Part shown: positions 5,313 through 49,655 of the stretch, one piece after another | Position numbering within the stretch: the first letter of the stretch is position 1 | Layout of the letters: each line of letters starts with the position of its first letter | NCBI GenBank assembly: GCA_016931115.1 | Contig: JAFGFM010000144.1 | Coordinates: 68,008 to 132,007 of the forward strand | DNA from: Deltaproteobacteria bacterium | GTDB lineage: Bacteria > Desulfobacterota > DSM-4660 > Desulfatiglandales > HGW-15 | Direction: 5' to 3' | DNA: 64,000 nucleotides | Position numbers and translations under genes: made by a program | Notes under the pieces: model-generated | The model's input: the letters and a program-made list of their open reading frames with translations, nothing else | The model's database searches: none | Told to the model about the DNA's origin: nothing

Positions 5313-7316
5313 CTATTCAGAGCGCCCCGAAAATGAGAGCATATTGCCACGCCGCTCATCTTCTTTAAGCAGGTTTTTTCTCATGTCTGAATGGATATGT
5401 TCCATCCTCTTCTGTGCATACAATATGGCCTTTTTTGATAAAAAACAAAAGAGCAATGTCTTTTCAAATGGATAATTTACAGCCATCCATTTCCATAGCC
5501 CGGCTCTTCCTTTTTCAAGAAGGGTATCATCAAGGGATAACATGGCCTCAAAGCTTCCAGGGTCTCCCATACGGGCGCACCGTCCGGCAAGCTGACGGTC
5601 TATCCTGCCTGCCTCATGGCGTTCGGTAAGTATGACATGAAGGCCGTTAAGCTTACTCACTTTTTCCGAGAGCTTAATATCAACTCCGCGGCCAGCCATG
5701 TTTGTAGCAATGGTAATGCTGTATTCATTACCGGCCTGGGCAATAATATCCGCCTCTTCCCTGTCCTGTTTCGCATTCAGTATCCTGAAGGGTAAGCCCT
5801 TCGCAGCAAAATATTTCCCGGCCTTTTCCGAAGCGGCTACCGAATGTGTGCCTATAAGCACAGGCCTTCCCTCCTTATGCATGGCATAAACCCTTTCTGA
5901 AACAGCCTCCCATTTCTCCTCTTCTTTATAAAATACCCTGTCAGAAAACAATTTTCTGCTGTTAGGTTTATAGGTGGGGACGGTTATAACATTGAGCCCA
6001 TATACCTTAATAAGCTCATTTTTCACCTCACGGGCAGTGCCTGTCATCCCGGACAGCTTTATGTACCTTCTAAAAAATCTCTGATAGCTGATACGGGCAA
6101 GAACCTTTGTCTGTTTTGATATCTCACACCCCTCCTTTACCTCAATTAGCTGATGCAGCCCCTTTTCATAGGACCTGTCGGCCATCACCCTGCCGGTGAA
6201 TTCATCAATGATCTGCACCTTTCCATCGCGCACCATATACTGTTCATCAGGTTTGAAAAAATGTATTGCCGAAAGGGCAAGCCTAACGATCTCGGCCCTT
6301 CTTACCTTGCCTGTCCAAAGGGGGCCAAGTCCTGCTGATAATCTAACGATCATCTCTTCACCGCCTGGGGTCAGCCTTATCTCATGGCCAGGGATATTGA
6401 TACTGTAATCCCTGCCCTCGGTCAATTTGCCTGCCAGATCAATAGCCTGATGAAAGAATTTATGTTCATCATGGAGAGTTTCACTTTGACCTGAGATAAT
6501 GAGCGGTGTCCTTGCCTCATCGATCAAAACACTGTCTGCCTCATCTACAATAGCAAAATGAAGGCCCCTTAAAAGAAGCCTCTCTATCCGCTCACTCCCG
6601 TTATAGAGGTATTCAGCATGAAGCTTAAGCTTATTGCCCCTGTCTTCAAGGATGAGCCAGTCCTTAAGGTAGTCAAAAACTATCTCCTTGTTGGTGCAGT
6701 ATACTATATCCTTTTCGTAAGCCCTTCTTCTCTCTTCTGGCGTCATGCCATGAATGATAAATCCTGTGGTTAAACCCATTGCACTGTATATGGAAGATGT
6801 CCATTCTGCATCCCTCTGTGTCAGGTAATCGTTTACGGTTATAACATGAACAGGAATGCCTGCGAGCGCAACAGTCCCAGCTGCAAGGGTTGCGGTAAGG
6901 GTCTTCCCCTCTCCTGTCTCCATTTCAGCTATCATGCCGTCCAGCATGACTTTTCCACCTGCGATCTGTGTATCAAAGTGTTTAAGGCCCTTAATCCTTG
7001 AAGAAAACTCTCTTATAATAGCAAAGGCATGGCTGGCGTTTTTCTCTGTCATCCCCTCCCTTCTAAATATCGCCCTTAATTCATCCGCCTTTGTTCCAAG
7101 TTCTGTTTCTGTCAATCCTTCCAGGTTTGATGATAATTGTTCCACCTCTCCTGCAAATCTTTTAAGTCTGCGCCTGTAACCTTTAAAAGGTGATGAAAAG
7201 GAGATAACCAGATTTTTATATATTCTATCCAGCGCGTTTGTCCTCCTGTCAGCCTTTTCAGGCCTCAATATATGGGAGGCTGGAGGAAATTCTGTCCTGT
7301 TGAATAGCATGGTCAC
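5313..7316 (-). CDS. SecA-like ATPase (truncated SecA paralogue, 667 aa)
   Basis: SecA motor motifs. Walker A MIAEMETGEGKTLTA (ETGEGKT = nt 6900-6920). VHVITVNDYL. VDEADSVLIDEARTPLIISG (VDEAD = nt 6534-6548). LSGMTGTA. ATNMAGRGVDIKL. GLHVILTERHEAGRIDRQLAGRCARMGDPG. The GTG start overlaps the upstream stop (GTGA); an alternative ATG is at 7310. Confidence 0.85.
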   Translation of the reverse strand: MTMLFNRTEFPPASHILRPEKADRRTNALDRIYKNLVISFSSPFKGYRRRLKRFAGEVEQLSSNLEGLTETELGTKADELRAIFRREGMTEKNASHAFAIIREFSSRIKGLKHFDTQIAGGKVMLDGMIAEMETGEGKTLTATLAAGTVALAGIPVHVITVNDYLTQRDAEWTSSIYSAMGLTTGFIIHGMTPEERRRAYEKDIVYCTNKEIVFDYLKDWLILEDRGNKLKLHAEYLYNGSERIERLLLRGLHFAIVDEADSVLIDEARTPLIISGQSETLHDEHKFFHQAIDLAGKLTEGRDYSINIPGHEIRLTPGGEEMIVRLSAGLGPLWTGKVRRAEIVRLALSAIHFFKPDEQYMVRDGKVQIIDEFTGRVMADRSYEKGLHQLIEVKEGCEISKQTKVLARISYQRFFRRYIKLSGMTGTAREVKNELIKVYGLNVITVPTYKPNSRKLFSDRVFYKEEEKWEAVSERVYAMHKEGRPVLIGTHSVAASEKAGKYFAAKGLPFRILNAKQDREEADIIAQAGNEYSITIATNMAGRGVDIKLSEKVSKLNGLHVILTERHEAGRIDRQLAGRCARMGDPGSFEAMLSLDDTLLEKGRAGLWKWMAVNYPFEKTLLFCFLSKKAILYAQKRMEHIHSDMRKNLLKEDERRGNMLSFSGRSE

Positions 7317-9457
7317 ACACTGAATTTACTTAAAAATGTACGTCTTATTCCCTTGTAGATCCTTATGAAAAGAGGCTCATACCCGTGGTTGAATTTTACA
7401 AGCACCCTGGAGCCGATATTGGATATACGCGGATTCTCAATTGATATTTCAAAATGAAAAAGTTTTTCAAATGCATTAACCCTATCAGTGTCAGCAGGAT
7501 TAAGGGCATGTTCGCCTCCCCCTTCAAGAGAGAGGGCAAGACTTGGCAGTTCTGTGGATGCGGCAGGGATTTCTCTGTAAATACGGCCTGGATATGATTG
7601 CCCGGGGGTTTCCACAAGCATAGCCTCAACAGTACCGGGTTTCACCCTGATCCTGTCTATATCCCTTTGCGGCACCACTATCCTGGCAGTTACCCTGTTA
7701 AAATCCACAACATACCCTATCTGTACCCCCCTTCTTAAGTAAAGGCCAATAAGGTTTTCCTGGTCAGGAAGAAGAAATATACCCTCCGACGGACTTTTTA
7801 CTGTAAGGTTTTGGATCTGTTCAGTGATGTTTTTCAGCTCTGCGGATATCCGCCAAATCTCATCCTTTAATATCCTGGCCTCTATCCGGTCACGTGTCTC
7901 TGCAAGGTTGTGGCGCAGTTCATATTCCTTAACTATTGAATCCAGTTCTTTTTTTTGTGTTTCAAGATCCTGATTTACACATACTATAAGAGGATCGCCC
8001 GTTTTGACTTTTGAGCCTGAAGGCACGATAACCTTTTCTATGTATCCATCTGCGCCGGCATAGAGTCTTGAATTTTCAGGGGGCCACAGCACCCCCCTGG
8101 AAATCGTATGGGAGGGGAATGGGATGATAAACAGAGTTGGAATAATTACTAGAAGAGAGATTAATGCTACACTGATTGCCCTTGCCTTTTTTCGCTTCAT
8201 CACAGGATCAGAAAAGAAAAACTTTACTATTTTTACCAGGGGCATAACAATAATGCCAGCCAGACCCCAGATGGCAAGCACGACCCCTACAAAAAAGAAT
8301 CGCCCTGCAATGAATATTGCAATTCGGATTGTTATGAAAATGCGGTACGTAAAGGAACTCAGGCCGTATATCACAAACCATTTTGCCTCACCCTTTGCAG
8401 TTACGGGACTAACAACATCTTCCATATTGAGCAGGTACCGCCTGAACAGATAACCGATATAACTGGCTGAACGCATTGCAAGATTGGGTATCTCAAGAAG
8501 ATCTGACAGGATATAATAGGCATCAAACCTGAGCAGGGGATTGCCGTTAAACAGGATTGTTGAGAGCCCCGCAACAATCATGACGTTAAAGCATACTGCC
8601 CTTATAATCCCCGGCTCTACATTGACCCATAGCAGCATTGCTAAAGACGCAAGCATTAGTTCGGCGAGGATACCGCTGGCCCCCACCATTACCCTTTTGT
8701 ATTTTTCTCTGAAGGCGGATGAAGATGATGCATCAACATAGGGGACAGGCACAAATACAAGGAACATAATTCCCATGTCATGTACCTCGCCCCCAAAGTA
8801 TTTTACTGTATAGGCATGTGAAAACTCATGCACAGCCTTGATTACCGGGTAGATTATCCACAGAAGAAACATGTTTTCAAGGGCAAGAACCCTGTCAGCA
8901 AGGTTCATGGTCAGTTCCTTAAAATGAAATGTGGCAAGAGATAAAGAGAAAAGGAGCAGGATTAAATAGAAGACAAGCCCTGTTCCAGTGAAGAGGGGCC
9001 TGACAAGAAACATGCTCTTTTCAAGAAATCTTTCAGGATCAATCAGGGGCAATTTTATTGAGAGCGGTGATTTTATCCTGCTCAGGATATCATTTTTTTT
9101 AAACCCTTTATTGCGCTCATAAAGTTCCTTTATATCGGGCGGGATATCTGCCTGAAGCAGGTCAGCCTGATGAAGTTGAGATAAAAGCATTATCACCTCA
9201 TCCTGGGTAGGCATGTCATCTCCCAGCATTTCGCAGGCCGATTCCCATATCTCTTTAAGGCTGTTTTTACCATCCATCAAACCAATTATATAGTACGCCT
9301 CCTTTGAAAACCGATGAAAGCCGCCCGTGTAATTATCCTGGAGTACATGCCATTCCTCGCCCCTGTACATTTGGTGATGTACCTTTGCGTGACTTCTTAA
9401 TACTGGCCTTAATGCTGAAACCCTGTACCAGGATTCACTGAAAAGAGAGCCGGTCAA
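7313..9457 (-). CDS. Fusion protein: PqqD-like N-terminal domain + M50 (site-2-protease-like) polytopic membrane domain + C-terminal HlyD-type membrane-fusion domain
   Basis: aa ~10-100 follow a PqqD/RRE-like pattern (ALRPVLRSHAKV...WHVLQD...FHRFSKEAYYIIGLMDGKNSLKEIWE...VIMLLSQLHQADLL). HEFSH is at aa 210-214 (nt 8816-8830) inside a hydrophobic segment. NPLLRFDAYY is at aa 305-314 (within nt 8513-8545), matching the S2P NxxPxxxxDG-type second motif. About 8 hydrophobic segments. aa ~455-714 form the lipoyl/coiled-coil/beta-barrel MFP part. Confidence 0.8.
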   Translation of the reverse strand: MTGSLFSESWYRVSALRPVLRSHAKVHHQMYRGEEWHVLQDNYTGGFHRFSKEAYYIIGLMDGKNSLKEIWESACEMLGDDMPTQDEVIMLLSQLHQADLLQADIPPDIKELYERNKGFKKNDILSRIKSPLSIKLPLIDPERFLEKSMFLVRPLFTGTGLVFYLILLLFSLSLATFHFKELTMNLADRVLALENMFLLWIIYPVIKAVHEFSHAYTVKYFGGEVHDMGIMFLVFVPVPYVDASSSSAFREKYKRVMVGASGILAELMLASLAMLLWVNVEPGIIRAVCFNVMIVAGLSTILFNGNPLLRFDAYYILSDLLEIPNLAMRSASYIGYLFRRYLLNMEDVVSPVTAKGEAKWFVIYGLSSFTYRIFITIRIAIFIAGRFFFVGVVLAIWGLAGIIVMPLVKIVKFFFSDPVMKRKKARAISVALISLLVIIPTLFIIPFPSHTISRGVLWPPENSRLYAGADGYIEKVIVPSGSKVKTGDPLIVCVNQDLETQKKELDSIVKEYELRHNLAETRDRIEARILKDEIWRISAELKNITEQIQNLTVKSPSEGIFLLPDQENLIGLYLRRGVQIGYVVDFNRVTARIVVPQRDIDRIRVKPGTVEAMLVETPGQSYPGRIYREIPAASTELPSLALSLEGGGEHALNPADTDRVNAFEKLFHFEISIENPRISNIGSRVLVKFNHGYEPLFIRIYKGIRRTFLSKFSV

Positions 9458-9500: not shown

Positions 9501-11369
9501 TTATTTGAAATATTCCCAAAACTTTACTGCAAGCCATTCCTTCATGGAGCGTGTCCAGATAGAAAAAAGATTTCTTCTGTCTATATATATCTTCCCTATC
9601 CCCTCCATGCCAGGTCTCAGCCTGTCTGTGATCACCTCAGGGGCAGCCTCAACCCTGAAAAAATTCAACCCCTCTTTTGCAGCAGCGATGGGTGTAATCT
9701 TGTTTACTGTAAAGGCAATCTTTTCATTTGGCAGGGCTGACAGGATCATATGCCCCTTTTGACCCGTTGTTACATCGGCAATCCGTCGTTCATCAACCTC
9801 CAGTATGATCCTGTATTCATCCAGGGGGGCCACTTCAAAGAGTATTTCACCCTTGACAGCTGCCCCGCCCAGCCTTTGACTCAGGTCACCGCTTATTACT
9901 ATCCCGTTAAACGGTGATACAAGATTTGCCCTTTCAATCTGGCTCTCTGTGAGCTCAAGTCTTGCGCTGGCCTGATCAATCTGTGCCCTGAATATCTCTG
10001 CCTCAGCTCTCTCACGCGTTGCCTGCGCTTCCTGATACTGTTTTTCATACTGTGCCTTTTTACTCATCCAGTTGAGCCTCTCAAGACGCAACTCCCTGTC
10101 ATCCATCATGCACAGTTTCGCATCCTTATCCACACGGTCTCCTGCCCTTACATAGGCATCCTTTATGTAGCCTTCAAATGGCGCCACAATCACCCGTTTG
10201 ACAGCCCCTTCAAGGATGGTATTTGCCGGGAGCCTGTAATCCCCATCCTTTACAGCGAAAAATATGACCATGATAACAATAAGGATGGCAAAAAGTTTTC
10301 TACCGCCATATTCAGTCCCCATACCTTTTTTGATAAAGCATTTAAAACCATCTGAGGCTTTTGTCAGTATTGGCCTTTCCCTTTCAAACATCATTCTGAG
10401 TACTGGCTGTATCAAGGATGCTACACTTTTACAGTACATGGAATCATCATCTGTAAATGGCCCTGTTTTGCTTCTTTCAAGGGTGATTACATTTACATAT
10501 CTCTCTTCATCATAAAAGGGGATTGTAAGGATATATTCTGACCCATGCTGTCGGGCGAGGGATTCGTGATCCCGTACGATCTGGCGTTCATGCCCTGTGC
10601 CAGGATAGAAAACTTCCTTTTGCTGGCTTATTGCCTCATCCATTGCCTGAATAATAGCTCTGACAAGATTCATATTATCGGAAACCCGGCTGCTGTGGGA
10701 TACTGCCTGGATCTTTATCTTTTTGTTTTTGATATGGCCAAGGCTAACCCTGTCACACATCAGGCATGTGGCCAACTCTGTCACAAAGGAGAGGCAGGCG
10801 CTCATATAATCTTTTCTGGATACAACCTCTGCCATTAAATCTACTGAAGCCTTGAGTCTTTTAAGTAATTCTCCGGCATCATTTTCACGTTCACGGCGCA
10901 GCATGACCTCCATCCAGGAGATGCCCCACTGAAGCTGCTCCAGGGTATATTTCAACTCTTCTTCTGTTTCAGCCTTTACCTCGATCGCGACAAGCCCGCA
11001 AAAGATGGTACCGGTAAAAACAGGATAGGCAACACCATATGAGCGGACGCTATCCTGCCTGGCCCTCTCTTCATGATCAAGCTCCACAAGCATGCCGCTT
11101 TTATCTTCAATAACCCGCTCTGCTATCTCTGTAAGGCGTTCCGGGTTTGCACCCTTTTCAGGCCATTTTGCCGCTGGAGAAAAATTCTCCTTTGCCTGAT
11201 CGGAAAGGATAACTATACCCTGAGTAACATTGGCGATTATTGCACATTGGAGTGTAAGCCAGTAAAGACAGTATTCTTCCCTTTCTACAGCGCTTGTGAA
11301 CTGAGACCACAAACGGTTGTCAATCCTGGGTCGAAATTTTATTCTTTCGTAATTGTATGTTTTATTCAC
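9501..11369 (-). CDS. GAF-domain-containing HlyD-type membrane-fusion protein
   Basis: The ~350-aa cytoplasmic N-terminus looks like two GAF-like folds by pattern, not by HMM. One TM segment (KLFAILIVIMVIFFAV). Then MFP hallmarks (APFEGYIKDAYVRAGDRV, long coiled coil, LVSPFNGIV, beta-barrel). GTG start. Confidence 0.72.
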   Translation of the reverse strand: MNKTYNYERIKFRPRIDNRLWSQFTSAVEREEYCLYWLTLQCAIIANVTQGIVILSDQAKENFSPAAKWPEKGANPERLTEIAERVIEDKSGMLVELDHEERARQDSVRSYGVAYPVFTGTIFCGLVAIEVKAETEEELKYTLEQLQWGISWMEVMLRRERENDAGELLKRLKASVDLMAEVVSRKDYMSACLSFVTELATCLMCDRVSLGHIKNKKIKIQAVSHSSRVSDNMNLVRAIIQAMDEAISQQKEVFYPGTGHERQIVRDHESLARQHGSEYILTIPFYDEERYVNVITLERSKTGPFTDDDSMYCKSVASLIQPVLRMMFERERPILTKASDGFKCFIKKGMGTEYGGRKLFAILIVIMVIFFAVKDGDYRLPANTILEGAVKRVIVAPFEGYIKDAYVRAGDRVDKDAKLCMMDDRELRLERLNWMSKKAQYEKQYQEAQATRERAEAEIFRAQIDQASARLELTESQIERANLVSPFNGIVISGDLSQRLGGAAVKGEILFEVAPLDEYRIILEVDERRIADVTTGQKGHMILSALPNEKIAFTVNKITPIAAAKEGLNFFRVEAAPEVITDRLRPGMEGIGKIYIDRRNLFSIWTRSMKEWLAVKFWEYFK

Positions 11370-11864: not shown

Positions 11865-14800
11865 CTAATTAAGCTCTTTTTTCTTTAAATATGACAACTC
11901 ATTGCCTGATTTCTTATCCAGCTCTCCGTTAGTCCATTTGACAAACTTCCTGAGCCTGTTCTTTCTATCCAGATTTATGAATCCTGATTTGTCTATAATT
12001 TTACCTGTTTCAGATTTTTTACCAGACAATGCACCCCAGCCGGTCAGACCTGCTACCATTGCTGTTATATCTATTTTCTGGTCCAGATTATCAGACCTCT
12101 CTTTTGCTTTCAAGCCTGTGCGAAGGTCATTATCCATATTAGAGAGACCGTCAGTATCCCTTCTTGCGCTCAACAATAATTTATTCAGTCTCAGGTCTGT
12201 GCCTTCATTCTCCGCTGAGCTGTTAATGATCGTACCATCCGGCAGCACCTTTATTATCCTTCCATCAGGATATGTCGTTACAGAAGATCCATCCGGGTTT
12301 TTAATTGTTTTGGTACCATTAGGCAAGGTGATGGTAATGGTGCCATCAGGGAATATCATAACCTCCCTGCCGTCAGGTGCGTTCCTTACTATTGTTTTAT
12401 CCTGTTTAATAACTTCTATAAGGCCATTCGGATAACGCTTTTCAATTGCGCCATCAGACAGGATTGAGGTTTTAATTGTGGCTTTTCCCTGGCCCTGATT
12501 ATTACCGTCAGAGAGATGGCTGTAATAGCTACCCATACCAAAAGCCTCTTCCGGTCCGGTAATTACTGTCCCTGATGCAATTGTTTTACTCTCAATCTGC
12601 ATAAATAGAGACCTGTCAGAAGGGTGGAGAATGTTTTCTCCTGGCGAGGTTAATCTTCCGGCTTTAGATAATGCCCCTTCTGCCATATTATATTGAGGTG
12701 GGTAAACCCTGTTAACCCTGTATTCTTCAAGGATAACCCTTCCATATTTGCTGATCAGGACATCCTCAGGGGCTTTTTTGTTGATAATGTCTTTACCCTC
12801 ACCGCCAAAGAGGATATCTGTACCTTCACCACCATCAAAAATATCAGCCTCTCCATTGACTGTATGCCTGGTCTCTATTGTGACAGGGATACCATTACTG
12901 AACTGAATAAATCCATTATCACCAATGAGGATATCAGTGCCATTTCCTCCTGAAATCGTGTCTTTACCCTCACCGCCCAAGAGGATATCATTGCCATTGC
13001 CTCCGGATAACACCTCCTGTCCCCCGGAAGGTGCCGGGACGCTTATTACCTGGTAGACAACTCCATCTTCAAAGGTGACTATGCCAAGGTCACCAATTAT
13101 GATGTCACGACCAATTCCAGCAGTTATTGTGTCATTGCCCTGACCCGCTATCGCAATATTTGCACCATCACCAAGGTTAACAGTATCATCCCCACCAAGG
13201 TTATCCAGCCTTGTGTCAATTTCAGTAAGGTCACCCACATCTGTAAAGATCATGAGGCCATTATCACCGGTTACATGGTCATCTCCTGAACCTCCGGTTA
13301 CAGTATCGTTCCCGCCACCTGCTATCACATAGTTGTTACCATCTCCAGAATCGATTGTGTCATCGCCCGTAGTGGTGTCATTCGTATCTGTGCTCTCCAT
13401 CAGGGTTACAATGCCATCTGTGATTTCAATTGTGCCGTTGTCGCCGGTAATGTAATCCTTGCCTGCGCCTGTTGTTACAGTATCATCCCCTGCGCCAGCG
13501 ATTATGTAACTGGTGCCATCTCCTGTTGTTATCTCATCATCACCGCCTTGTGTCGGGCTTGTGCTTTCCAGCCTGGTTATCACACCATTTTCATCTATCT
13601 CTATTACGCCCGAATCACCGATAATGGCATCATTACCAATTCCAGCTGTTATTGTGTCATTGCCCTGGCCTGCTATCGCAATATTGTCACCATCACCAGC
13701 ATCGATTATATCGTCACCCGTGGTGGTATCATTAGTATCTTTGCTCTCCATCAGGGTTACGATATTGTCAGTGATTTCAATATTGCCATTGTCACCAGTT
13801 ATGTAATCCTTGCCTGCGCCTGTTGTGACTGAATCATTCCCTGCACCGGCTATTATGTAATTGGTGCCATCTCCTGCGGTTATATTATCATTACCACCCT
13901 GAGTCAGGCTTGTACTTTCCAGCCTGGTTATCACACCATTCTCATCTATTCCTATTACCCCTGAATCACCGATAATGGCATCACTGCCCTCTCCAGCTGT
14001 TATGGTATCATTACCCTGACCGCCTATCGCAATATTGTTACCATTGCCAAGGTCAATATTATCATCCCCGCCAAGGTTATCCAGCCTGGTGGCTATTTCG
14101 GTAAGGTCTCCCACATCTGTAAAGACCATTGTACCATGATCACCCGTTACATAATCTTCCCCGGATCCTCCAGTTACAGTATCCTTTCCGCCACCTGCTA
14201 TCACATAGTTGTCACCATCTCCAGCATCGATTATGTCGTCACCCGTGGTGGTATCATTAGTATCTTTGCTTTCCATCAGGGTTACAATGCCATTTGTGAT
14301 TTCAATGGTGCCGTTATCGCCAGTGATGTAGTCCTCTCCTCCACCTGTTGTTACAGCATCATTACCTGCACCGGCTATTATGTAATTGGTGCCATCTCCT
14401 GTTGTTATCTCATCATCACCGCCCTGTGTCAGTCTTGCGCTCTCAAGTCCGGTTATAATACCATTTTCATCTATTCCTATTACACCTGAATCACCTATAA
14501 TAGCATCATCACCAATCCCAGCTGTTATTGTGTCATTGCCCTGACCTGCTATCGCAATATTTGCACCATCACCAAGGTCAAGGATATCATCCCCGCCAAG
14601 CTCATTAAGGCGTGTGGCTATCTCGGTAAGGTCACCCACATCTGTAAAGACCAGTGTACCATGATCACCAATCACATAGTCATCGCCTGAACCGCCGGTT
14701 ACAGTATCCTTTCCACCACCTGCTATCACATAGTTGTCACCATCTCCAGAGTCGATTGTGTCATCGCCCGTAGTGGTATCATTCGTATCTCTGCTCTCCA

Positions 14801-17800
14801 TCAGGGTCACGATATTGTCAGTGATTTCAACTGTGCCATTGTCGCCTACAATATAGTCATTGCCATTGTTCCCGGTGATATCATCATCACCAAAACCGCC
14901 AACAAGTATATCGTCTCCATCATTACCAACAATTACCTCATTACCACCAGAGTCAGGCTGAACTGATACTACCCCTGTAATGTTGTAATTAATATCACGG
15001 TCAATTGTTGCCTCATCACCAAAGATAACATCATTACCATCTCCGCCAAACAGGTTATCATTACCAAGCCCGCCTGCCAGAACCAGCTCGGCACCAGCAG
15101 GAACAGCTGAGGCGTCAATCGTATCATCTCCATCATCGCCATGAACCTCAAGTCTGCCTGAAATAACCGTCTCTTCTATGGTTATAACATCGTCTCCTTC
15201 ATTTCCCGATATCGTTGTAAGAGTATCACTTTGGATATCTACTACAGAGATTACATCTGCACCCCTTCCGAAGATAATTTTTATACCGCCCTCAAAGGTT
15301 CCATTGGTTGCTGCATAATTAATATCCGCAGGCGACATGCCGGAGACCCTGTTCTCTGTAATAATTACATTAATATCCGCTGTTTCTGATCCTGCATCAC
15401 TTATGGTAATGGTGTTACTGCCTGATTCTGTATCAATATTGATTGTTCCGTTTATGCCATCCAGGTTACCAAGGTTAGCCGGGGCATCAGAGGATATATT
15501 AACAGTGTCATTACCTGCACCGGTAAAGATATTTGTAACTGTTCCTGATGCTGTTGCCTGCACATTAACCGCATCATCCCCGCTTCCTGTATTCAGGTTA
15601 AGGTTTTCTATGGCGGTATACTGAACTGAGCCATTTAAACCCATGTTAAAACCTGTAATAGTATCCTCTGTCAAGGTCCCTGTTACAGCTTCTGTCTCTC
15701 CGGTAATATCAAGGTGGAGTGTATCAATGCCTGCCCCGCCATCTATATCAATCAATTCAAGAATATTTCTGATATTACCTGAATTATTGCTGTCAGGATC
15801 AGCATTGCTTCCTATGCTGATAGTATCATTACCACCCAGCGTATTGATTACAGTTGGTGAGGCTGTATACATAATAGGAATAATATCATTATCGCTGTTA
15901 CCAGTTATCGTTACGAGATTACCAGTAACCATGCCTCTCATCTCCAGGACACCGCCAACACCAGCGTCCGCATTTCCAAAATCTACATAGAGTTCCACAC
16001 TGTCAGCGGCATGAACAATTGCCCCATCCTCAATAATGAGATTATCACCTGCCCTAAGCTCTATTGACCCGGCAGTCGATATTACATTCACACCCGCCTG
16101 TACAGTCAAATGGTCTGCATCAGAATTATCCGCTGTGGTAAGAATAATATCGCCTGCCTCCATGCGTTCTGTAACGGTCATGGGGCTGTGGGCTGTGATC
16201 TCTATCCTACCTTCAGCCCTGATGCCATCATTCTCTGTTACCCCGCCTATGATAAGGTGGCCCTGGTTAATAAGCCATATACTGCCATGTACAGAGCGAC
16301 CTTCAAGGTGGCCGATAGTGGTTTTAATGGCCCTTGTACCTGAACCTATATTTCCATCTGCAAACAGCCATGCAGAGCCTGACAGGATATTATCCTCCTC
16401 ATCAAGCCTTGCATTAAGTATTGATGCCCCGCTTCCGATAAATGCGGTATAACCAGGCCCTGTAAATACCTGATAAATTGATAGATCCCCATCTGTTTCA
16501 GTAAGATAGGTATTTAATGAGCTGGTACTGATAAGGCTTCCTTCGCCTGAGAATGCGCTGTTTATATCAAGGTCATTACCTGATATCCCGATCCCTCCGA
16601 ACATGGCCTCAAGGTTAATGCTATTCCCTGTAATATCTGCCTGAAGGTCATTTTCAGCATCAAGTATGGATGCCACTGCTCTTAAAGTAACATCACCATT
16701 CGAAGATACAATACTGCCTGTTAACATGTCTCCATCTGTCTCATAGAGATAGATATCTCCGCCTGCGGTTGCATTCAGGATGCCTTCAGGATAAAGATTG
16801 ATATCAAGGTAGTTAATTGTGTCCCCTGTTTTGCTGCCTATGGAATCCCCTGCAAAGAGGTTCAAGACCTCTGTGCGGATATTCAGGTAGTCATCATCAA
16901 AGGCATCAAGGATGGACATGTCAGCAATAAGATCTATCCTCTTTCTTGAAAACAGAGTATCTACATTCATATCTCCATTTACTTCATGGATAAATATCCC
17001 GTTATTTGCCCTTGAAGTGAGTTTAGCACCGGAAGCGAGGTCTATGGTTACAGGAGCCCCATCAAGGCCAATCCCCTCACGCCCTGATTCGAGGAACAGG
17101 TCACCGCCTTTAATATTAGTTCCTGCCCCCGCAGAAGAATTGTATATGCCGCCCTTTGTCTTAAGCCTTATCTCCCCGTTGGGATTATCATCCGGCCCAG
17201 CCTGAATAGATATGATATTCACATCTGACTCAGAACCTATGAATATGAATTCTCCTGCTTTTATATCTATGCCTGCACCTGTATCCTGCTGCTGAATAAT
17301 CCTTATCTCGCTTCTCGTTATATTGATAACACCTGTATCATTCGACCCAAGGGCGTTTTCCTCTGTGTCAAAGAGTTTTATGGTGAATTCATCAATAACT
17401 CTTGCATAATAAATCTCTCCATCTGTTACACCGGAGATATTGCTTATTGTAAAGGTGCCGAACGGCCCAAAATTAACAGGGGTACCGCTTGTAAGGTCAT
17501 GAGCCGAGCCAAACCTTATTGTATTTAGAGCGGAATTACTTTCTGTAATATCTTCCGGATCTGTTGAATTGATCAGGTCATTTTCATAATCAGTAAGGTT
17601 TAAGAGTGTACCCTCTCCACCCATATCCCCTTCTGATGTGTAGATGCTGATCTCGGTAACCGTCCCGCCTGAGGAGAAATCTATATCCTCACGCTGGACA
17701 ATCCTTGCCTCACTGCGCGTGATATTTATCAGGCCTGTATCACCCTCTCCCGTCGCATGAGCAGCGCTGTCAAACAGTTGTATGGTAAAATCATCTATTA

Positions 17801-20800
17801 CCCTGGCATAATATGTAACACCGTCAGTTACACCCTGTATCCCTCCAACACCCATATTCCCGCCTGACCCGAATATTACTGCTGCACCCGATTCCAGTTC
17901 ATGAAGGGTGCCAAAGCTTACAGTGTTGGTATCAGACTTAATGGAGATGAGATCTGCCCTTTCTGCGGCAGCAAGGGCAGCCTTTTCAGAATCGGCAAGA
18001 TCAATCAGGGTGCCGCCCGATTCAAGGTCACCGTTTGAAATAAGGATAACCTGTTCGTTTAGAAAATTACCTATGCTCCCGGAGGCATTAATAACAACAT
18101 TTTTACCAATAATATTTGAGGACTCTATACGTGTCTCAGTATCAGTGGTCTCCTTGAGCCACCCTGCACCAAGAGAATATTTGAGCTGCTCCTCTGTCCA
18201 GCTTGAGCCTATTGCAAGTGCATCAACATCAGAGATGCTGTGATCCGTTCCTGTTGCCCCTGAAGCATCAATATCAAGATAGATACCAAGGTTTGCATTC
18301 TCCAGTGAGTCAGCCAGCCTTATTATCGACGGATTACCGGAATCGGCCTTAATTATGTAATAAATTTTATCCTCGGCCAGCTCCTTCCATTCGCCCTCTT
18401 CCATGTACCTAATTTTAGAACCACCGTTTGCATTGTAGACAACCCCTGTACCGGTAGCTAACAGGTTGACACCTATGTTGATGGTATCATTTGCGCTGTC
18501 CACATCCTGGGCGGGCGTGAAGAGGGGCTCATACCCGGGGTTAGCGGTATCATATTGCCAGTCAGGATTAAAGGTATCACCCAATACGCTGAAGCGGTTA
18601 TGAAGCTCATGGAACTCCTGCGTTCTTTTTAACTCCTCCAGGTCTATCCTGGCATCATCCCACCCCAGCTGATCCTTGTAAGCCTCCCTCTGGGCATCAG
18701 TCATTGTGACTTTAAACCCCGTATCGTATGCCAGCATATTTGTCAGAGAGAACCTCCCTTCTGCTAAAGGAGTGCTGATATTTATGGACTGGTCTGCATT
18801 TGCGTGTGAGAGAGAATCAGCAAGCCTGATGGTATGGCTGCCTACAACAATGGCATAATAGGTCTGTTTATCATTAAGCCCTGTTATTGTATCTCCTTCC
18901 ATCACCCGGTAAAGCAGGGCATCACCGGTTGTAAACCCGTGATCAGCATCAAAGGTAATAGAAGTACCGCTTACCTGGGAGATACTGTCTATATATATGG
19001 TACTTCCTGTTCTATATCCCCAGTAGGTATTATATTCACGGGTCTTAAGCCCCTTGTAGGCATCCTGTGTTTCCTTACCGTCATTATCAATGAGATTCAT
19101 CTCATCCCACAGATCAGCGAGCTCAGCCTCTGTGCGGACATCCCGTCTTTCAAGCGTATTTACATCTACAAGGTTTCCGTCATCAATGGTGATATTTACA
19201 TCGCCATCAAGGGATTCAATGGCCACAACCCTGAGATCATCAGATATCTCATGTAAATATATGTCATTAAATGCATGGGCTGTAATGGCATCAAACTTAT
19301 CGTCATCATCATAGTTGTTATCATTATTTGTATTAATGCGTAAATTCAGTGATGAGGTGCCCAACGCTCCTGTTAAGGATGTCAGGTGTATGTTATCCCC
19401 GGAGATAAGGGAGCTGTTATCATTAGCAAAAATGCCCCCTTCTGATGCCATTACCACATCATCATTTGCAGATATGACCGTGTCGACAGTAACCTTGCCC
19501 TCTATCTCTTCAATAGCAACAAGGCCATCTGCACTGGCTGTAAGAAGACCGCCAGCTACATCAGTACGTACAGACTTATAATGCTCTTCAACTGCGGTCA
19601 GGGTTAAGGGGTCAGTATTGTATTCAGTAGTTGTATCATCCGTTACATTGTAGAGAGTAAATCCATCATTGTCTGTTATTGAAACCAGGCCTGAGCCGTT
19701 TTCAAGTGTAATTGTGCTTTCAGTAATTGAGGCAATGACAAAATCCTTATTGTTATTCTCCCCCAACCCATCAGTGAACCTGATAATATCTCCTGCATCA
19801 TATCCCTCTTCAGTCCATTTACCGCTGTTTCTCCTGATCGTCGCCCTTACCTGATTACCGATGGTTCCATTAGCTGCCTCAAGGGTTATATTTTCTGCCC
19901 TGATAAGCGCAAGCTCTTCAAGCTGGTTTATAGAGCCGTTTTCTGAAACAATGGCCGTCGGGCCGGAGAGGTTACTTATAACACCGGTAAGGTTTATGTC
20001 GGTGTCAGATGTGATCTCAACAACGCCTGTTTCATACCCCATAAACTCAATCTTTACAGGGTAGTCTGCCTTGACACTGTGATAATCATAATTGGTGCGG
20101 CCTACAGAGGTAATTCTCTCAAGGTGATAGGTCTTTGTAGAGAATATCCACCACCCGCTCGTTGTTACCCATTCCCTGGTATATACAACAGGATCTCCAA
20201 GGCTGTTGAATTCATAGGCATAACCTGGATTGGTTGTTCCATCGTTTTCCTTCTCAACAAATTTGCTTTCAGGTTCGAGATCTACCGGTGTCGGATCAAC
20301 ATAATTGTAATAGCTTCTGGATTGCCCATTTGCATAGTTAATGCCCCAAAAACTACTGCTTGTCCACTGTTCGGTCAGGACAGAGGTCTCTGAATATCCT
20401 GTTACCCAGTAATACCTCTGGCCGGAAACAGGCTGATATGTGGCATTACGGCCATCAATAATGGCGCTGGACCCTGAAACCACATTCTGAGTATCATTAT
20501 CTGTTACCTGTACAGAATTCCCTATCCTTGTATAGGTCGTTGTAAGTGGTTTGTAAACATTCGGGTCACTGTCCACATCATAGGCTGTGTCTGTGATAAT
20601 TACCTTTCCCTCTATGCCATTACCCATCCCCTTTACAGTTAGACCTTCAGAGATATTGACTTCATTAACAAGGAATGCGGTTGAATCAAGTTCAAGGCCC
20701 TTTTCCGTTACACGGACCACCTTGTATTCACCGTTATTATTTGCTGAGCCGGTAATTACTATTGTCTGGCCGTCACGGTATCCCTCTTCAATCCAGCTCC

Positions 20801-23800
20801 CTGCATTACGTGTTACCGTGTCCGAATCTGCGGTATGATTGAAGGTGATCCAGTTGCCTACCACCTCAAGTGTAGTAGAGGTGCTGACTTCACTGGAAAA
20901 ATCACCCCCTTCAAGTACAAGGTTAAGGTCTCCCACGGATTTCACAACATATATGCCATCATTCCCATTTGCAGAGTCTAAAATCCTGATCGATTGCCCC
21001 ACATAAAAACCATCAGTTATCCAGCTCCCTGCGCTCCGGCTTATTGTATCATCTGCACCTGTGTCTGAAAGGGTGATCCAGTTGCCGCTGATCTCAAAAG
21101 AGGAGTTGTCACGGAATTCAGTGGTAAGCGTCGCTCCTGCTGTAAGGGTAAGCGCCTTTTCCTCCACCCTCTCAACAGTATAGACCCCGTTATTACCTTC
21201 CTGTGAACCAGTTATGCGTACCTGCTGTCCCTCACGGAAACCATCAAGTATAAAGCTGCCTGTCTGCCTTGTAACTGTATCAGCCCCTGAAGCGCCGTTA
21301 TCCTTGAGTGTAATCCAGTCAGCTCCTGTTACTAGCATATCCCGGCCCGTAACACGCAGGTCAGCGCCGGTTAAGATCAGCTCCTCATCCTCTCCGGTTT
21401 TTATACTCTGTACATCAATTACATAGGAGGACTGATTATCGATTTTTATCTTGCCAAATCCATCCACGACCTTGAGCAGCCCATCTGTGTCCGTTGCAAG
21501 GATGTGCCCTGTAAGTTTTATCAGGCCTCCATCAACTGATACATCATCTATAATAATACGGTTGGTTTCATGGTTATAAAAGACCTCTATATCTGAATCT
21601 GTAAGAGTGATCCAGTCGCTTTTACCCTCTGCTTCCAGTGTTGATATTCTCTGATCAAGTGTGGTTGTCGTCTTATCCTTCAGTGTTACAGAAGAGGTAT
21701 CCTGAAGAGTTAGTGTACGATCTGCATTTCCGCTCTGGATCGGGCCATTAATATTAAGCACCCTTGCGGTGATAAACACATTGTTACCGGCAATAATGGC
21801 ACCATTCTGGGCACGATGTGCGGTATTGCTGCCGGTCCAGTTGCTCCCTCCATCATACTCGGTTCCGTCAGGATTAAATTTTTGAGTGCTATCACTTGCA
21901 GTTGCAAGATCATCCCATACTGCTGCTGGGTCTCCGCCCACATGCTGGGTATCAGTAGCTATGACAACATCCCTTCCGGCCTTTATCTCAACCGTCTTGG
22001 CCTTTATAGATGTCCTCTGCTCAGGAACTGTTGAATCATCATCCTTAATAAAGATGCTTCCCTCTTTGTTGGCGATACTTACTGTCCCCTCTATATTAGT
22101 AATATTTGAGCCCAGTATCTCTATATCCGGGGGTGGCGCTGATGCGAGCAGCCCTGTTGGTGGAGGATTATAGGTATTGCGTATCTCTATAAGGGGATCT
22201 GCTGAATTCTTGTCAGTAATGATGCTGCTGAATTGCGCAAGCCTGCCTGACCTGTTCCGAGCCTGTATGTCGCTATTACTGTAAACCCTTGCACCGTTAA
22301 AGGTGACATTTCCACCAAGGTCCAGGACAGTAAGGTCTTCCTTGATGCGCAAATAATAGGGGCTGTGATTTTCTATGGTGATGCGGGTATCCCCGGGGGC
22401 ATCGAGTTTTCCTGATCCTGAAAGTGTATCGCCTGAGATTATTATATCACCGCTTCTCGCGATAATCTCAGGGGTCTCAATAAATGTGACCTCCATATTT
22501 CCTACAACAGCGCCATCCGGGCTTAAAAGTCCAAGTTCGCCCGCCTGGTATTTAAGCTGGTCAATCTGCGCCTGTATGCCTGCAAGGGCCTTTCCATCTC
22601 CCCCATAATTTTGCTTATCCAGCTCCAGCTTATCTATCTCAGCTCTTATAGCTTCTGCTATATCTGCCTTTACCTCAAGAGGCATATCGACTCCCGGGGT
22701 ACGGTAGATAAGGTCTGAAATAGTGCCCGGTTTTATGGGTGTCGCATAGATTTTCATCCCTGCATACGTCTCGTTTTGACTGATCCTGTGGTTTCCATCC
22801 AGTATAAGAGAGTAACCGCTTATCTCCTGAATCCTGTATGTCCCGTCATTTCCTTCAGAACTACCGCGTATTACGATATACTGGTTTGCCTGGAACCCTT
22901 CGGCAGCCCAGTCACCGGTTAAGCGGGTAATGCGGTTGTCTGCCACTGTCAGGGTAAGGCTTGTCCCCTCTGTGAGTGACACTACCTGTTCAATGGATTT
23001 TGGTGCAATACCTGTAATATTCCTGCTTGCTGACGCAATGTATGTTTCATCAGCATCAAAGGTATCATACCCTGTTGCAAGGATAAGGGTGTCCCCTGTA
23101 GCCAGTTCTATCTTGTATATGCCGTTATTACCACTTGCAGACCCTGTAATCCTTATATACTGCCCTGTTGCAAAACCAAGATCTGACCAGTCTGAACTAT
23201 CAGTGAGTTCAATCCTGTCCTGGCTGCCACCAACGCCTCTTGTGAATAATATCCCTTTCCCATATGTTACCTCAACCACCTTTGCGGCAGGGGTCTGAAT
23301 AAGGGTATCTGTATCAGTGTTTGTTTCATCATGGGTTAATTCATACCCATCCTTCAGCCTGATGACAGTTGCAGTAACACTCTCAATTGCATAGTCGCCA
23401 TCATTATTATCAGAACCTTTGATAACAATCTTCTGATCAGCAGCAAACCCGTCAGTTACCCATGAACCGGAACTGCGCTCTATCCTGGCGTTGTCTATTG
23501 ACCATGTGATGTTCGCTGTAGCTGATGCGCTTACCGTTGCGGTTGTCTGTCCGCCGTTATCAACCATATCAAGGGTAAGTGGGCCGTTGACGTACATAGT
23601 GTTCCCGGAAACAGAAAGGATAGTATAAGAACCATTATTCCCTGAAATATCCGCCCCTGAGAAGGTGACCTGCTGATTTTGCCTGTAGTCAGATGACCAG
23701 CTGCCTGACTGGTTTATAACCTTTGCATATTCATGCTCTCTCTGGGCTGTGAAGCTGACATTATCTGATATAGTAAGGTTTAAGGTAAACAGAGAGCCAT

Positions 23801-26800
23801 TATCATCTGTAGCGGCACCAATTGACGAACTCTCAATAAGTGTAATTACAGAATCTGAAACAGAGTAGATCGAATAATTACCATTATTTGCTCCTGCATC
23901 AGATATGGTAATATTTTGCCCTGCCCTTAAACCTGCTGTAACCCAGCTGCCAGTGTCTCTGGTAATTGTTGCCCTAGAAACCAGATTATCATCACCATCC
24001 CTTACCTCGGCTGCAAAGGTTAAATCAACCCCGGACAAAACAGATATATCCTTTTGAATAGTTATGGGGCCGCTGCTTACAGCATCATCAATAATCCCTG
24101 AACCATCCACAAGTTGAATAACAGAACTGCTGACTGAGGATATTTCAAATCCTGTGCCTGTGTTATTAGCTGCATTATCGGCCCCTGAAATCCTTATCAG
24201 ATCACCAGCAGCAATACCCTGATCCGCCCAGTTGCCTCCAGACCAGGTTATTTCCGCATCAGCTTCAGCCTGTTCCGGCACAAATGCCATATCGACTGTG
24301 GTCTGGCCTATGGTTGATGTTATATTTTCAGCGATATCCGAATGCTCCGTAATATCATAGGTCTCTGCAAGGTACAGACTGCCTGCTGTTACCTGGACAA
24401 CTGCATAATTGACACCATCAATTATGATTGTCTTGCCTGACAGGAAACCATCATCTATAAAGCTGCCTGAACTCCTTTCTATTACTGCCCGCCTGGGAAT
24501 ATAATCAAGGACAGGATTACCTGTTATATTCGCAGCACTTGAGACCGGCTTTATTGCCTGTGCAACTATATCGGCGCTGCCTGTTGTTTCATTTGCAAGT
24601 TTTGATCCGGTTACAGTGATAACCGTGTCAGTTATTGACAGGATACGGTATGCACCATCATTATTTAAAGATCCATCCACATTAATATACTGTCCTTCGA
24701 CAAAACCATCTTCAATCCAGTCTCCAGCCGCGCGGGTAATTGTGGAATTTGTACGATTGAATGTAAGGTTCGGCGACCCGTTCATGACTATTGGTCTAGT
24801 ACCTGTAGAACTTGTGGCTGCAAAAAGATCTGCGCTGTCAGATACCCTGTCTATAATGATATTATCCGCAAGTGTAAGAACTGTATCTCCTACAGAATTA
24901 ATCTTGTATACGCCGTCATTACCGTTTGACCCGTATACCCTTATATATTGTCCTGCCTCAAACCCATCTGTAACCCATGATCCGTTACTCCTTGTAATGG
25001 TATCATCATCCACCCCGTTTGCTGCAAATGTCAGGAGCGGTACACCACTACCCTGATCAGTCATCATAATGGGGGCATACTGTTCATCCGTATTACTTAT
25101 AATGAGTTCCTGGATATTATTCTTCCCTGACCTTACACTACCATCTACCCTTACATCGGCAGATGCTGCCTCTTTGTATGAATCCTTAACTATCTTGAGG
25201 CTTACTGGTTTTATACCAAAGATTGATCCAAAAAAGTTTGCTATGGCGGCCAGCACCTCACGGTAAAGGTCTGTTCCCACACCGGCCCCATGTGCATAAT
25301 AATAACCCTTGTCTGCATTAAGATGCACATCAGCAGCAGAGCCTATATATGCCCCACTCTTTATATCTACAAGGTTGCTCTGGACTATCTCACCATGCGC
25401 CTTTGGATCAGTATAGATAGGAAGCGCTGTCTTGTTCCATAGGTCTGTATTGGCCTTTACATAGAAACTGTTACCAACCCCGGCATTAAGGCTGATATCC
25501 CCGAGTGCGTCTATTTCCGCATTATTGCCAACTGTTACCTTGTTATCTGCATGAACAGATGAATATGACTCTCCCTGAGCTGCCCCTGCAAGACCATAGG
25601 TATTAGAATTAGCCTGTGTCTGCACATTGGCTATTGAAGAGGCAGATATGCCTATACTTCCTACTCCGGTCAGGTTGGCATCCCCGATTATGATCTCATT
25701 TGTATTTACATTGTTTATGATAACTGATTTTGCCAGTGCAATGGCTATGGCTCCACCCGAATCAAGCTTCACCTTATCGGTTGCATAAAGCATGTTTTTG
25801 CTATCAAAATTCATGCTGCCAGGGTGATGCCTGTCACCATCCACCTCTATATCGGCACCATCCTGAACAATTATCTTTGTACGGTCAACAATTGTTGTTA
25901 TGCTTGATGCTGCTGGCCCGCCCACAAGCCCGCCTGCCCCTGCAACTACGTTATAACCGTCTGAGATCTTCGTGATAATATTATTAGCGTCAACATCAAT
26001 AGCCCCGGCATTAACATCTACCCCCGTGCCAAAGACAATATTCACATCAGAGGTGACATTGTTTGTGACATTGGCCCCGCTCCCTCCAACCAGCGCCGCT
26101 GTTATGCTGTCTGAATCTGCTCTGAACAGGGTGTTGTGTTCTGCCTTTACCTTGAAATTGCCACCAACATCTATTTTTGTACCGGTTCCGGTAGCGATAT
26201 CCACCCAGGTAGTGCTGTTATTTATGGTTTTTCCATTAGATGCAGACCCTGCCACCAGGCCACCACTCCCGGCCTTCACATACGCCTTATTATTATCAAC
26301 GCCTGTTGCACTGATATCCAGGCTACCGCCTGTGATGTTTACATTGCCCTCAATGTAGGCATGCGTAACTGTCCCTGAAAGTACAGTGGCCTTGTTAAAC
26401 CCGAGGGCGATTAATCCGCCTGCATTACTGTTTGCCTCTGAATATTGAAGGGTTTTATTATCAGCATTTATAACAGTTGTGCCTGTGATATTAAATTGTG
26501 CACCATCCAGGATATAGCTCTTAACAGCAGCCTTTGCTTCAACATTACCTGTAGTGGCATCAACCCCAACAAGGGCGCCCGCTGAACCTGTGGATCTTGC
26601 ATAGGTTGAATAACCGCTTGATGGCAGCTTATGAGTACCTTTTACCTGGATACTTTGAGCGGTTATGTCACCGCCTGCATAGGCAATAATTGTGGGCGAT
26701 ATCTTTGAGACTGACTTTGATGCGCCGACAGCAGCAAGGCCGGCATTAATGCCTGTAGTGGTCGCGTATGATTTAGAAGTAGCTTCTGCATTTACCTCAA

Positions 26801-47432: not shown

Positions 47433-47617
47433 TTTTACCCCCGGTTTTAAGAGATACAGATTTAGTCCCCGCAGAATATTTCGCGGTTATCCAGATAAAT
47501 ATGAGGGTTAAAAAACTCCTGTACCCTCTCTCGATTCAAATCGACAGGTGGGGGCAAAGACTTAAATTTTTTAACCGGATCAGTTAATGGTATACAGGAT
47601 GCAAATATCTTTTAATA

Positions 47618-49051: not shown

Positions 49052-49096
49052 ACCATTGATAAATCATAGAGTAATCAGCTCTTGAAAAATTTATGC

Positions 49097-49116
49097 GCCC
49101 CGGAAAAACCCGGGGC
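49097..49116 (-). terminator. Possible terminator hairpin after skp
   Basis: gccccgg-aaaaac-ccggggc stem-loop. On the minus strand it is followed by cataaattttt, an interrupted U-tract. Confidence 0.35.
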
Positions 49117-49139
49117 ACTTTATATCGGTAAAAGTTTTT

Positions 49140-49655
49140 TTAGGGCTTTGAATCGTATAGTTTTATGATCTGATCAGTTACATCAATCGCTTTATCAGAA
49201 GCCACTATTGAACTCTTTTCAACTATTATTGAAAGCTTCTCTTTGTTCAGGTATTCCTGGGCTGCATCCCTTATGGCTGTTAAAAATTTGCGCCCCAGTT
49301 CTGTATCCTTGGCCTGCATTTCCGCCTCAATCTCTTCCTTCATACGGGGGAGATCCCTTGCTTCCTTTCTGAGGGTCTCTGCCTTGTCTCGCCTGACCTG
49401 TTCAGTCATTGTGCTCCCCTTGGTGGCTAGTTCGTTATCCAGGGCCTGAGCAGCGCTCTGCCTTTTTATGAGTTCCTGCCTTTTGGCCTCAAACTCCTTT
49501 GTGAAATCAGCGCGCGCTTTAGTGATTTTTGCTGACTGCGACAAAATTTTCTGGGTATCTATTACACCTATCTTTACTTCTGCTGCAAAAGCGGGAAAAA
49601 GATTGGCTGCAATGAGCGCAAGAAAACAGATTAACAATAGCGTGAGTCTTTTCAT
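49140..49655 (-). CDS. skp: OmpH/Skp-family periplasmic chaperone
   Basis: Signal peptide followed by KIGVIDTQKILSQSAKITKARADFTKEFEAKRQELIKRQ..., a long charged coiled region. 171 aa, typical Skp size. Confidence 0.85.
   Translation of the reverse strand: MKRLTLLLICFLALIAANLFPAFAAEVKIGVIDTQKILSQSAKITKARADFTKEFEAKRQELIKRQSAAQALDNELATKGSTMTEQVRRDKAETLRKEARDLPRMKEEIEAEMQAKDTELGRKFLTAIRDAAQEYLNKEKLSIIVEKSSIVASDKAIDVTDQIIKLYDSKP

Follow-up and report, generated by a model that had tools for sequence, protein, structure and literature searches.

A short SecA-like ATPase and its neighbouring genes were analysed in a window of 64,000 nucleotides (nt) from a deltaproteobacterial genome (GenBank assembly GCA_016931115.1, contig JAFGFM010000144.1, positions 68,008 to 132,007 of the forward strand). 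The protein is likely to be the ATPase of an accessory, envelope-spanning exporter of type-I-like design which has no ATP-binding cassette (ABC) transporter and is dedicated to the giant LEPR-XLL/RTX protein encoded beside it. The locus bears on how bacterial proteins of 10,000 to 36,000 residues are exported across two membranes. Besides a probable cargo it unites LEPR-XLL as candidate signal, PqqD-M50 as candidate receptor and protease, the short SecA as motor, and three adaptors with TolC as conduit. The short SecA family and its operon context were already published in 2015 from a computer analysis (Kamneva, Poudel and Ward, PLoS One 2015, PMC4452313), and the window holds a further member. 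As the core gene association has been known since then, the window is a good example with a plausible cargo and not a new kind of system; potentially new are the assignments of cargo, leader and receptor.

A conserved short SecA paralogue

The gene under study is the following:

5313..7316, minus strand: short SecA-like ATPase, 667 amino acids (aa) from a GTG start, 665 aa from ATG 7310

A first-pass annotation of this DNA, made from the sequence alone, had described a truncated SecA paralogue, namely a 667-aa open reading frame (ORF) which keeps the SecA motor motifs. The motifs are indeed present. Walker A (ETGEGKT) is encoded by GAGACAGGAGAGGGGAAGACC at 6920-6900 on the minus strand, with 0 matches expected by chance, and VDEAD by GTAGATGAGGCAGAC at 6548-6534 on the same strand; both had been placed exactly, and the translation also shows the remaining motifs that had been quoted. 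Pfam matches were obtained for SecA_DEAD (3.7e-102), for P-loop_SecA, the second nucleotide-binding domain (1.5e-48), and for SecA_PP_bind (2.9e-23, residues 284-392, whole model spanned). The annotated retention of a shortened preprotein-crosslinking insert holds. No Pfam match to SecA_SW was found in the protein. The order of domains is nucleotide-binding domain 1 (NBD1), preprotein cross-linking domain (PPXD), NBD2, and then the first part of the scaffold helix.

Residues 49-654 align with positions 19-650 (of 901) of Escherichia coli SecA at 38% identity, and residues 42-654 with positions 10-601 (of 841) of Bacillus subtilis SecA. The C-terminus corresponds to approximately residue 663 of the 901 residues of the E. 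coli protein. It lies 81 aa behind the last motor motif, for which the first-pass annotation had estimated about 100 aa. On the established SecA domain map of the E. coli and B. subtilis structures, this end falls inside the first long scaffold helix. The protein thus lacks the helical wing domain, IRA1 with the two-helix finger, and the C-terminal linker with the zinc tail; the annotated loss of wing, zinc tail and most of the scaffold agrees with both alignments. With the NCBIfam secA equivalog models (TIGR00963 / PRK12904) the protein scored 595 bits, below the cut-offs of 800 and 814, and the match spans only the first ~475-490 of ~790-814 model positions. Scores with the SecA2 models were all far under the cut-off (TIGR03714, 470 of 930 bits; TIGR04221, 432 of 725; TIGR04397, 541 of 1085; NF012136, 407 of 1100). 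No second secA was found in the 64-kb window.

Shortness is shared by the relatives of this protein. In a search of 5.8 billion proteins the top 120 matches were of near-uniform length (~664 aa) and 51-100% identical to the query, and most of them came from metagenome-assembled genomes of deltaproteobacteria or Desulfobacterota. The top 150 matches of an exhaustive search among representatives of 50%-identity clusters were nearly all 650-690 aa long. Thirty diverse short members were aligned together with E. coli SecA. All 30 end in the motif LxF(S/A)GxxE at the same position, which is absent from E. coli SecA, and all 30 share an N-terminal extension of ~45 aa that E. coli SecA does not have. 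An insert of ~26 aa in NBD1 is likewise common to the 30 members and is a gap in both E. coli and B. subtilis SecA. Motor motifs and PPXD are kept across the aligned family. Raw identity to distant members of the clade (38-41%) equals that to E. coli SecA.

By alignment and synteny, then, the gene is judged to be a real, conserved short SecA paralogue and no truncation artefact. The basis for paralogy is its relatives, which exist as plasmid-borne copies and as second copies beside canonical SecA in complete genomes (PMC4452313). Of the first-pass label 'truncated paralogue', the short form stood, and a truncation in this genome did not: being short is a property of the entire family and not an event in this genome.

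The GTG start overlaps the TGA stop of the upstream M50-HlyD gene by 4 nt (GTGTGA), as had been annotated. NCBI, in its call for P0001 (665 aa), used the alternative ATG at 7310, which is located 2 nt past that stop. With either start codon the two genes are tightly coupled.

Proteins of this kind carry other names in the databases. The NCBI pipeline labels short SecA-like proteins 'prepilin peptidase' or 'DEAD/DEAH box helicase' (L007 20028-21944; L008 19923-21947; P0102, P0116), and M50-HlyD 'PqqD family protein' or 'efflux RND transporter periplasmic adaptor subunit'. Under such names the family is hard to trace by annotation.

The cassette in the window

On the minus strand the genes follow each other in the order TolC, giant, DUF3467, GAF-HlyD, M50-HlyD, SecA-like and short HlyD. 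Three HlyD-type proteins and a TolC are therefore present, and the first-pass placement of the SecA-like gene in an adaptor/TolC operon was correct. The neighbours of the SecA-like gene are:

41280..42827, minus strand: TolC-family outer-membrane channel, 515 aa (OEP 1.7e-50; TIGR01844 240.7 bits, cut-off 225.15)
11865..41216, minus strand: giant putative cargo, 9,783 aa, with LEPR-XLL, DUF4347, long repeats, RTX and a conserved C-terminal ~150 aa
11469..11792, minus strand: DUF3467 protein, 107 aa (Pfam 2.6e-21)
9501..11369, minus strand: GAF-HlyD, 622 aa, a cytoplasmic N-terminal part of ~350 aa with GAF followed by a periplasmic membrane-fusion domain
7313..9457, minus strand: fusion of a PqqD-like domain (RRE), an M50-type intramembrane metalloprotease and a periplasmic HlyD part (M50-HlyD), 714 aa
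4559..5299, minus strand: short periplasmic HlyD adaptor, 246 aa, with signal peptide (RND_mfp 119.7 bits, cut-off 94.9)

None of the ORFs scanned in the 64-kb window contains an ABC transporter domain. The TolC gene lies 63 nt upstream of the giant gene. In GAF-HlyD the cytoplasmic and periplasmic parts are separated by one hydrophobic stretch, judged by eye to be transmembrane. The short HlyD protein likely starts at ATG 5299, 13 nt past the SecA-like stop, and not at the mechanically called start 5359, which would overlap the SecA-like gene by 47 nt; ATG 5299 is preceded by the ribosome-binding site AAGGGG and yields the signal peptide MKHNLLKGTFLLIMISAILSNAVHG.

Of all cassette proteins DUF3467 is conserved best, with 65-95% identity among homologues versus 55-78% for the SecA-like protein of the same loci. 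It begins with a Lys/Glu-rich segment of ~22 aa that varies, and its body is highly conserved. A fold search with DUF3467 gave nothing informative, and a role as chaperone or adaptor is a guess. A scan of the cassette for internal promoter and terminator signals gave no result above shuffled controls.

The giant putative cargo

The giant protein contains the following elements:

41067..41132, minus strand: LEPR-XLL motif, residues 29-50, FETLEKRILLSADP (NF012209 29.9 bits, cut-off 17)
40179..40775, minus strand: DUF4347, residues 148-346 (5.5e-50)
12747..13022, minus strand: RTX calcium-binding nonapeptide repeats near the C-terminus (HemolysinCabind 8.4e-44)

Cysteine is entirely absent from it, and Gly, Ala, Thr, Ser, Ile and Asp are abundant. 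Inspection of its N-terminus by eye, with no predictor, revealed no Sec-type hydrophobic signal peptide. Over its last 150 aa it can be aligned from end to end with the C-terminal parts of the giants in seven related loci (L002-L005, L009-L011).

A metagenome scan with an M50-HlyD alignment as the query yielded 80 loci, and all counts given here refer to those with enough sequence. Of 43 loci with upstream sequence, 25 have a giant ORF, or one truncated by the contig end, directly next to the cassette, and a further three carry the giant downstream. Complete cassette-adjacent giants are ~8,800 to 18,500 aa long. LEPRxLLSAD or a close variant was present in all six cassette-adjacent giants with a readable N-terminus. 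The variants include LEKRILLSAD (window), LEPRVLLNAD (Methylosinus) and LEPRLLFSAD (L077); for L081 the core was read as LEPRLLL. On these grounds the 9,783-residue giant is probably the cargo of the short SecA cassette, and LEPR-XLL is proposed as its targeting signal or leader.

Within DUF4347 the segments 'IHIISHG' and 'ILLYGCN' each follow a hydrophobic strand. This His/Cys pattern recalls peptidases of clan CD (caspase/CPD-like), and the giant might process itself. The giant gene also contains long plus-strand ORFs (e.g. 28201-30345, 714 aa), presumably antisense artefacts.

A putative PqqD-like domain on the M50-HlyD protein

M50-HlyD carries HExxH at residues 210-214 and NPLLRFD at 306-312, and residues H210, E211, H214, N306, P307 and D312 are invariant in 37 M50-HlyD sequences. 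The NCBIfam model of the daptide HExxH protease matches at 4.7e-44 and YydH/LiaK at 2.2e-07. The Pfam M50 score of the window protein is 22.4, under the cut-off of 27.2. An AlphaFold2 model (predicted local distance difference test score 78) shows an N-terminal domain, a polytopic core, one more transmembrane helix and a periplasmic adaptor. A Foldseek search with this model ranked the adaptor half only, which matches MexA, MacA and AcrA at ~1e-10; the membrane-fusion fold of the periplasmic part is thereby confirmed.

In the model, residues 24-97 have the topology beta-beta-beta-alpha-alpha-alpha. PF05402 (PqqD) matches 29 of the 37 M50-HlyD homologues, the best at 1.4e-05, and orthologues are annotated as PqqD family by the NCBI Prokaryotic Genome Annotation Pipeline. 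M50-HlyD thus appears to begin with a PqqD-like peptide-recognition domain, a feature not reported in PMC4452313.

Conservation of the cassette

The association with membrane-fusion proteins, whose absence from other genomes would have counted against the first-pass reading, was found again elsewhere. The SecA-like gene directly follows M50-HlyD in 65 of 69 metagenomic loci, and the association also holds in five large-contig loci, on 11 plasmids and in one Methylomirabilota genome contig carrying the same cassette (L001), the single locus that a scan of a genome collection with the SecA-like protein returned. GAF-HlyD precedes M50-HlyD in 69 of 70 loci, the short HlyD gene follows the SecA-like gene in 42 of 47, and DUF3467 stands before GAF-HlyD in 29 of 49. 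A TolC gene lies inside the locus in a minority of cases only. Measured from stop to stop, complete SecA-like ORFs in the metagenomic loci reach 668 aa in the median. The order giant, DUF3467, GAF-HlyD, M50-HlyD, SecA-like, HlyD recurs in the large-contig loci L002-L005, where the giants measure 12,631-18,499 aa.

The 11 plasmids belong to cultured Alphaproteobacteria, among them Methylosinus, Pseudosulfitobacter, Rhizobium, Sinorhizobium/Ensifer, Mesorhizobium and Pontibrevibacter, and M50-HlyD lies beside the short SecA on every one of them. The Methylosinus plasmid shows the order giant, DUF3467, membrane-fusion protein, 'PqqD family protein', SecA-like protein (mislabelled 'prepilin peptidase'), membrane-fusion protein and TolC. 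Within ~10-20 kb on either side of the cassette, no ABC transporter was annotated or called in the related loci inspected. Neither SecY2 nor Asp-type genes were found in the window or the related loci inspected.

A relative with no SecA-like gene was found on plasmid ABSP7_p2 of Azospirillum brasilense Sp7 (L092, NZ_CP012916.1 238256-257247). A 4,195-aa protein which begins with MALEPRFMF and contains DUF4347 is followed there by TolC and three adaptors: (i) a 262-aa membrane-fusion protein; (ii) a 454-aa HlyD protein without GAF; (iii) a 733-aa M50-HlyD. This locus, to which the inspection was confined, contains neither a GAF domain nor a gene for a SecA-like protein, an ABC transporter or any other ATPase. 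From this pairing the LEPR cargo is tied to M50-HlyD, and the arrangement speaks for the motor as an add-on, and perhaps for the GAF domain as another. At least seven plasmids of Azospirillum, Variovorax and Indioceanicola have a DUF4347 match together with a distant M50-HlyD match; L092 alone among them was inspected.

Accessory genes vary between loci. A SapC-family protein occupies the position of DUF3467 in L058 (6540-7337) and L065 (6217-7023), and in L008 (19109-19930) it lies between M50-HlyD and the SecA-like gene. These three loci have no DUF3467, and SapC and DUF3467 may be alternative accessory subunits. Just past the cassette, on the opposite strand, L004 (13930-16892) and L005 (14280-16322), both distant relatives, carry a radical-SAM gene and long DUF3467-fusion proteins (688 and 378 aa).

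Relation to known systems

Kamneva et al. (PMC4452313) described 'secondary SecA_DEAD domain proteins' which have lost the wing-scaffold region and occur in addition to canonical SecA in complete genomes. Their loci, for example META1p2399-2402 of Methylobacterium extorquens AM1, encode GAF, Peptidase_M50, SecA_DEAD and HlyD/biotin-lipoyl proteins, in some cases also OEP, and it was proposed that the ATPase substitutes for an ABC transporter and that the M50 protein is the membrane part. The window has the same gene order and a SecA_DEAD protein with scaffold and wing missing or reduced. It differs in that the paper makes no mention of cargo, LEPR-XLL, RTX, DUF3467, SapC or a PqqD-like domain. 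The novelty implied by the first-pass annotation was overstated, since both the family and its HlyD/M50/GAF/OEP neighbourhood are in that paper. The literature searched contained neither experimental work on the cassette nor a paper that connects it with LEPR-XLL.

Classical type I secretion systems (HlyB-HlyD-TolC; LapBCE) resemble the locus in having one or more membrane-fusion proteins and TolC, and a large, repeat-rich, cysteine-free cargo with C-terminal RTX. Unlike them, the window locus has no ABC transporter and contains three different adaptor paralogues instead of one. It has, moreover, a SecA-type motor, an M50/PqqD membrane protein and a cargo with a conserved N-terminal motif. With canonical SecA and with SecA2 of Gram-positive and mycobacterial type, the short SecA shares the homologous DEAD motor, PPXD and the start of the scaffold helix. 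It differs from them in the absence of wing, two-helix finger and zinc site, in its own NBD1 insert, N-terminal extension and C-terminal motif, in scores under all equivalog cut-offs, and in having no SecY2 or Asp neighbours.

SecA_DEAD and PPXD modules without scaffold and wing have also been described inside giant proteins of Omnitrophota and Actinobacteriota and proposed as their exporters (West-Roberts et al., bioRxiv 2023). Common to these and the window is a SecA motor without scaffold and wing in association with giant proteins; there the module is built into the giant polypeptide next to transmembrane helices, whereas in the window a HlyD/M50/TolC cassette encodes it as a 667-aa protein of its own. 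In the Chlorochromatium symbiosis, the giants Cag_663 and Cag_665 of Chlorobium chlorochromatii have LEPRxLL N-termini, lie beside SapC and TolC and are reported to be exported; a horizontally acquired 'secA', Cag_1676, is co-expressed with them (10.64898/2026.03.19.712371). The authors of that study proposed a Sap-like type I system, described the giants as lacking known signals and left the secA gene out of the export route that they suggested for the giants. Likenesses to the present cassettes are the LEPRxLL giants, the adjacent TolC, SapC as in L008, L058 and L065, and the co-expressed, acquired 'secA'.

Proposed export mechanism

In the following scheme the association of the genes and the assignment of domains are observed; we infer how the cargo is recognized, cleaved, passed through the membrane and driven. 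The cytoplasmic PqqD-like domain of M50-HlyD would recognize the N-terminal LEPR-XLL leader of the cargo, and the conserved HExxH...D site of the same protein may cleave it. In bacteriocin ABC exporters the counterpart of PqqD-M50 in this handling of a leader would be the C39 peptidase domain. Passage through the inner membrane would be supplied by the polytopic M50 domain, and the three adaptor paralogues would build a periplasmic sleeve which docks to TolC. In place of the ATPase of an ABC transporter, the SecA-like motor would thread the unfolded chain of some 10,000 aa, and extracellular Ca2+ binding by the RTX repeats would help to pull and fold it. DUF3467, or SapC in other loci, would act as a cytoplasmic accessory. 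Because both ends of the cargo are conserved, the model does not fix the direction of export (N-first or C-first).

A broader proposal is possible, though we stop short of calling it probable: LEPR-XLL would be the dedicated N-terminal leader of a distinct, unnamed secretion system. In such a system the PqqD-like domain would bind the leader, M50 would remove it, and three adaptors and TolC would conduct the chain. The short SecA would add force for cargos of 9,000 to >18,000 residues, and SecA-less versions would serve smaller ones. If true, a leader system of this kind would explain how the largest bacterial proteins, the giants of the Chlorochromatium symbiosis included, leave the cell, and the short SecA would be the first Sec-type motor acting outside the SecYEG pathway. 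The presence of the cassette on plasmids of culturable Alphaproteobacteria makes the idea genetically testable.

Alternative explanations

Several points weigh against a dedicated exporter of the giant. Secretion by the cassette has been experimentally demonstrated in no organism, and M50 proteases are, to our knowledge, not known as protein-conducting channels. Of the 43 loci with upstream sequence, 15 have a giant neither before nor after the cassette, and the large-contig locus L006 consists of the four-gene core without a giant. The PqqD match of the window M50-HlyD is sub-threshold (15.7 bits against a cut-off of 23.4; E 0.02). RTX repeats and a conserved C-terminal domain would fit a C-terminal signal of classical type, with the ABC transporter encoded elsewhere. 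Since the related L092 cassette has no SecA-like gene in its locus, the motor may be auxiliary. Finally, in M. extorquens, the sole organism with expression data, the SecA-like gene is barely expressed (PMC4452313).

Against this background, a two-step route, in which the short SecA hands the giant to the housekeeping SecYEG in a manner like SecA2-only export and the adaptors and TolC take over from the periplasm, is considered unlikely. The SecA-like protein does keep PPXD and the beginning of the scaffold helix, which both contact SecY in canonical SecA, and the clade was put beside actinobacterial SecA2 by Kamneva et al. However, the wing and the two-helix finger that enters SecY are absent from it, all four SecA2 models scored far under their cut-offs, no Sec-type hydrophobic signal peptide is visible by eye on the giant, and SecY2 or Asp-type genes do not occur in the loci inspected. 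The near-invariant, tight adjacency of M50-HlyD points to a dedicated partner instead. Distinctly unlikely is a role of the short SecA outside export, for instance to gate or regulate the conduit, or to extract a stalled giant chain and exert quality control over it, with transport driven by proton-motive force or Ca2+-dependent folding. The SecA-less Azospirillum variant, which has the same set of M50-HlyD, membrane-fusion protein and TolC and a LEPR/DUF4347 cargo, speaks for such a role, and the GAF domain hints at regulation. Yet the Azospirillum cargo is far shorter (4,195 aa versus ~8,800 to 18,500 aa), the absence of a SecA-like gene there refers to the locus and not to the whole genome, and motor motifs and the PPXD polypeptide clamp are conserved throughout the short SecA family.

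It is very unlikely that the cassette instead matures or exports a small peptide or protein, similar to a ribosomally synthesized and post-translationally modified peptide (RiPP) or bacteriocin and perhaps DUF3467 itself, with the nearby giant being incidental or regulatory. The M50 part is indeed closest to RiPP leader proteases, M50-HlyD has a PqqD-like leader-recognition domain, radical-SAM and DUF3467-fusion genes adjoin the cassettes of L004 and L005, and some cassettes have no adjacent giant gene. Nevertheless, most loci in which enough sequence was present have a giant LEPR-XLL ORF right beside the cassette; DUF3467 is missing from 20 of 49 loci, with SapC in its place in others; and a variable N-terminus before a conserved body is the opposite of a leader-plus-core precursor. 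In addition, a translocation ATPase that has a polypeptide clamp is not known from RiPP exporters. The notion of a housekeeping secA broken by mis-assembly, frameshift or pseudogenization is effectively refuted. Its sole foothold is that a second secA was sought in the 64-kb window alone. It was rejected on family-wide length, shared terminus and synteny: hundreds of homologues have the same length and the conserved C-terminal motif, the operon context is conserved, copies reside on plasmids of cultured bacteria, and the score lies under the secA equivalog cut-off. The protein was, furthermore, found beside canonical SecA in complete genomes (PMC4452313).

Surroundings of the cassette

The genes flanking the cassette region are housekeeping genes (ETF, FabD, ClpB, HisD and others). 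Upstream of TolC, at 43347-51293 on the minus strand, are genes for a 1,361-aa FecR-domain protein, an SLT lytic transglycosylase, an OmpH/Skp chaperone and a protein with TPR and beta-barrel parts. A FecR-family gene also adjoins the Methylosinus cassette (L007).

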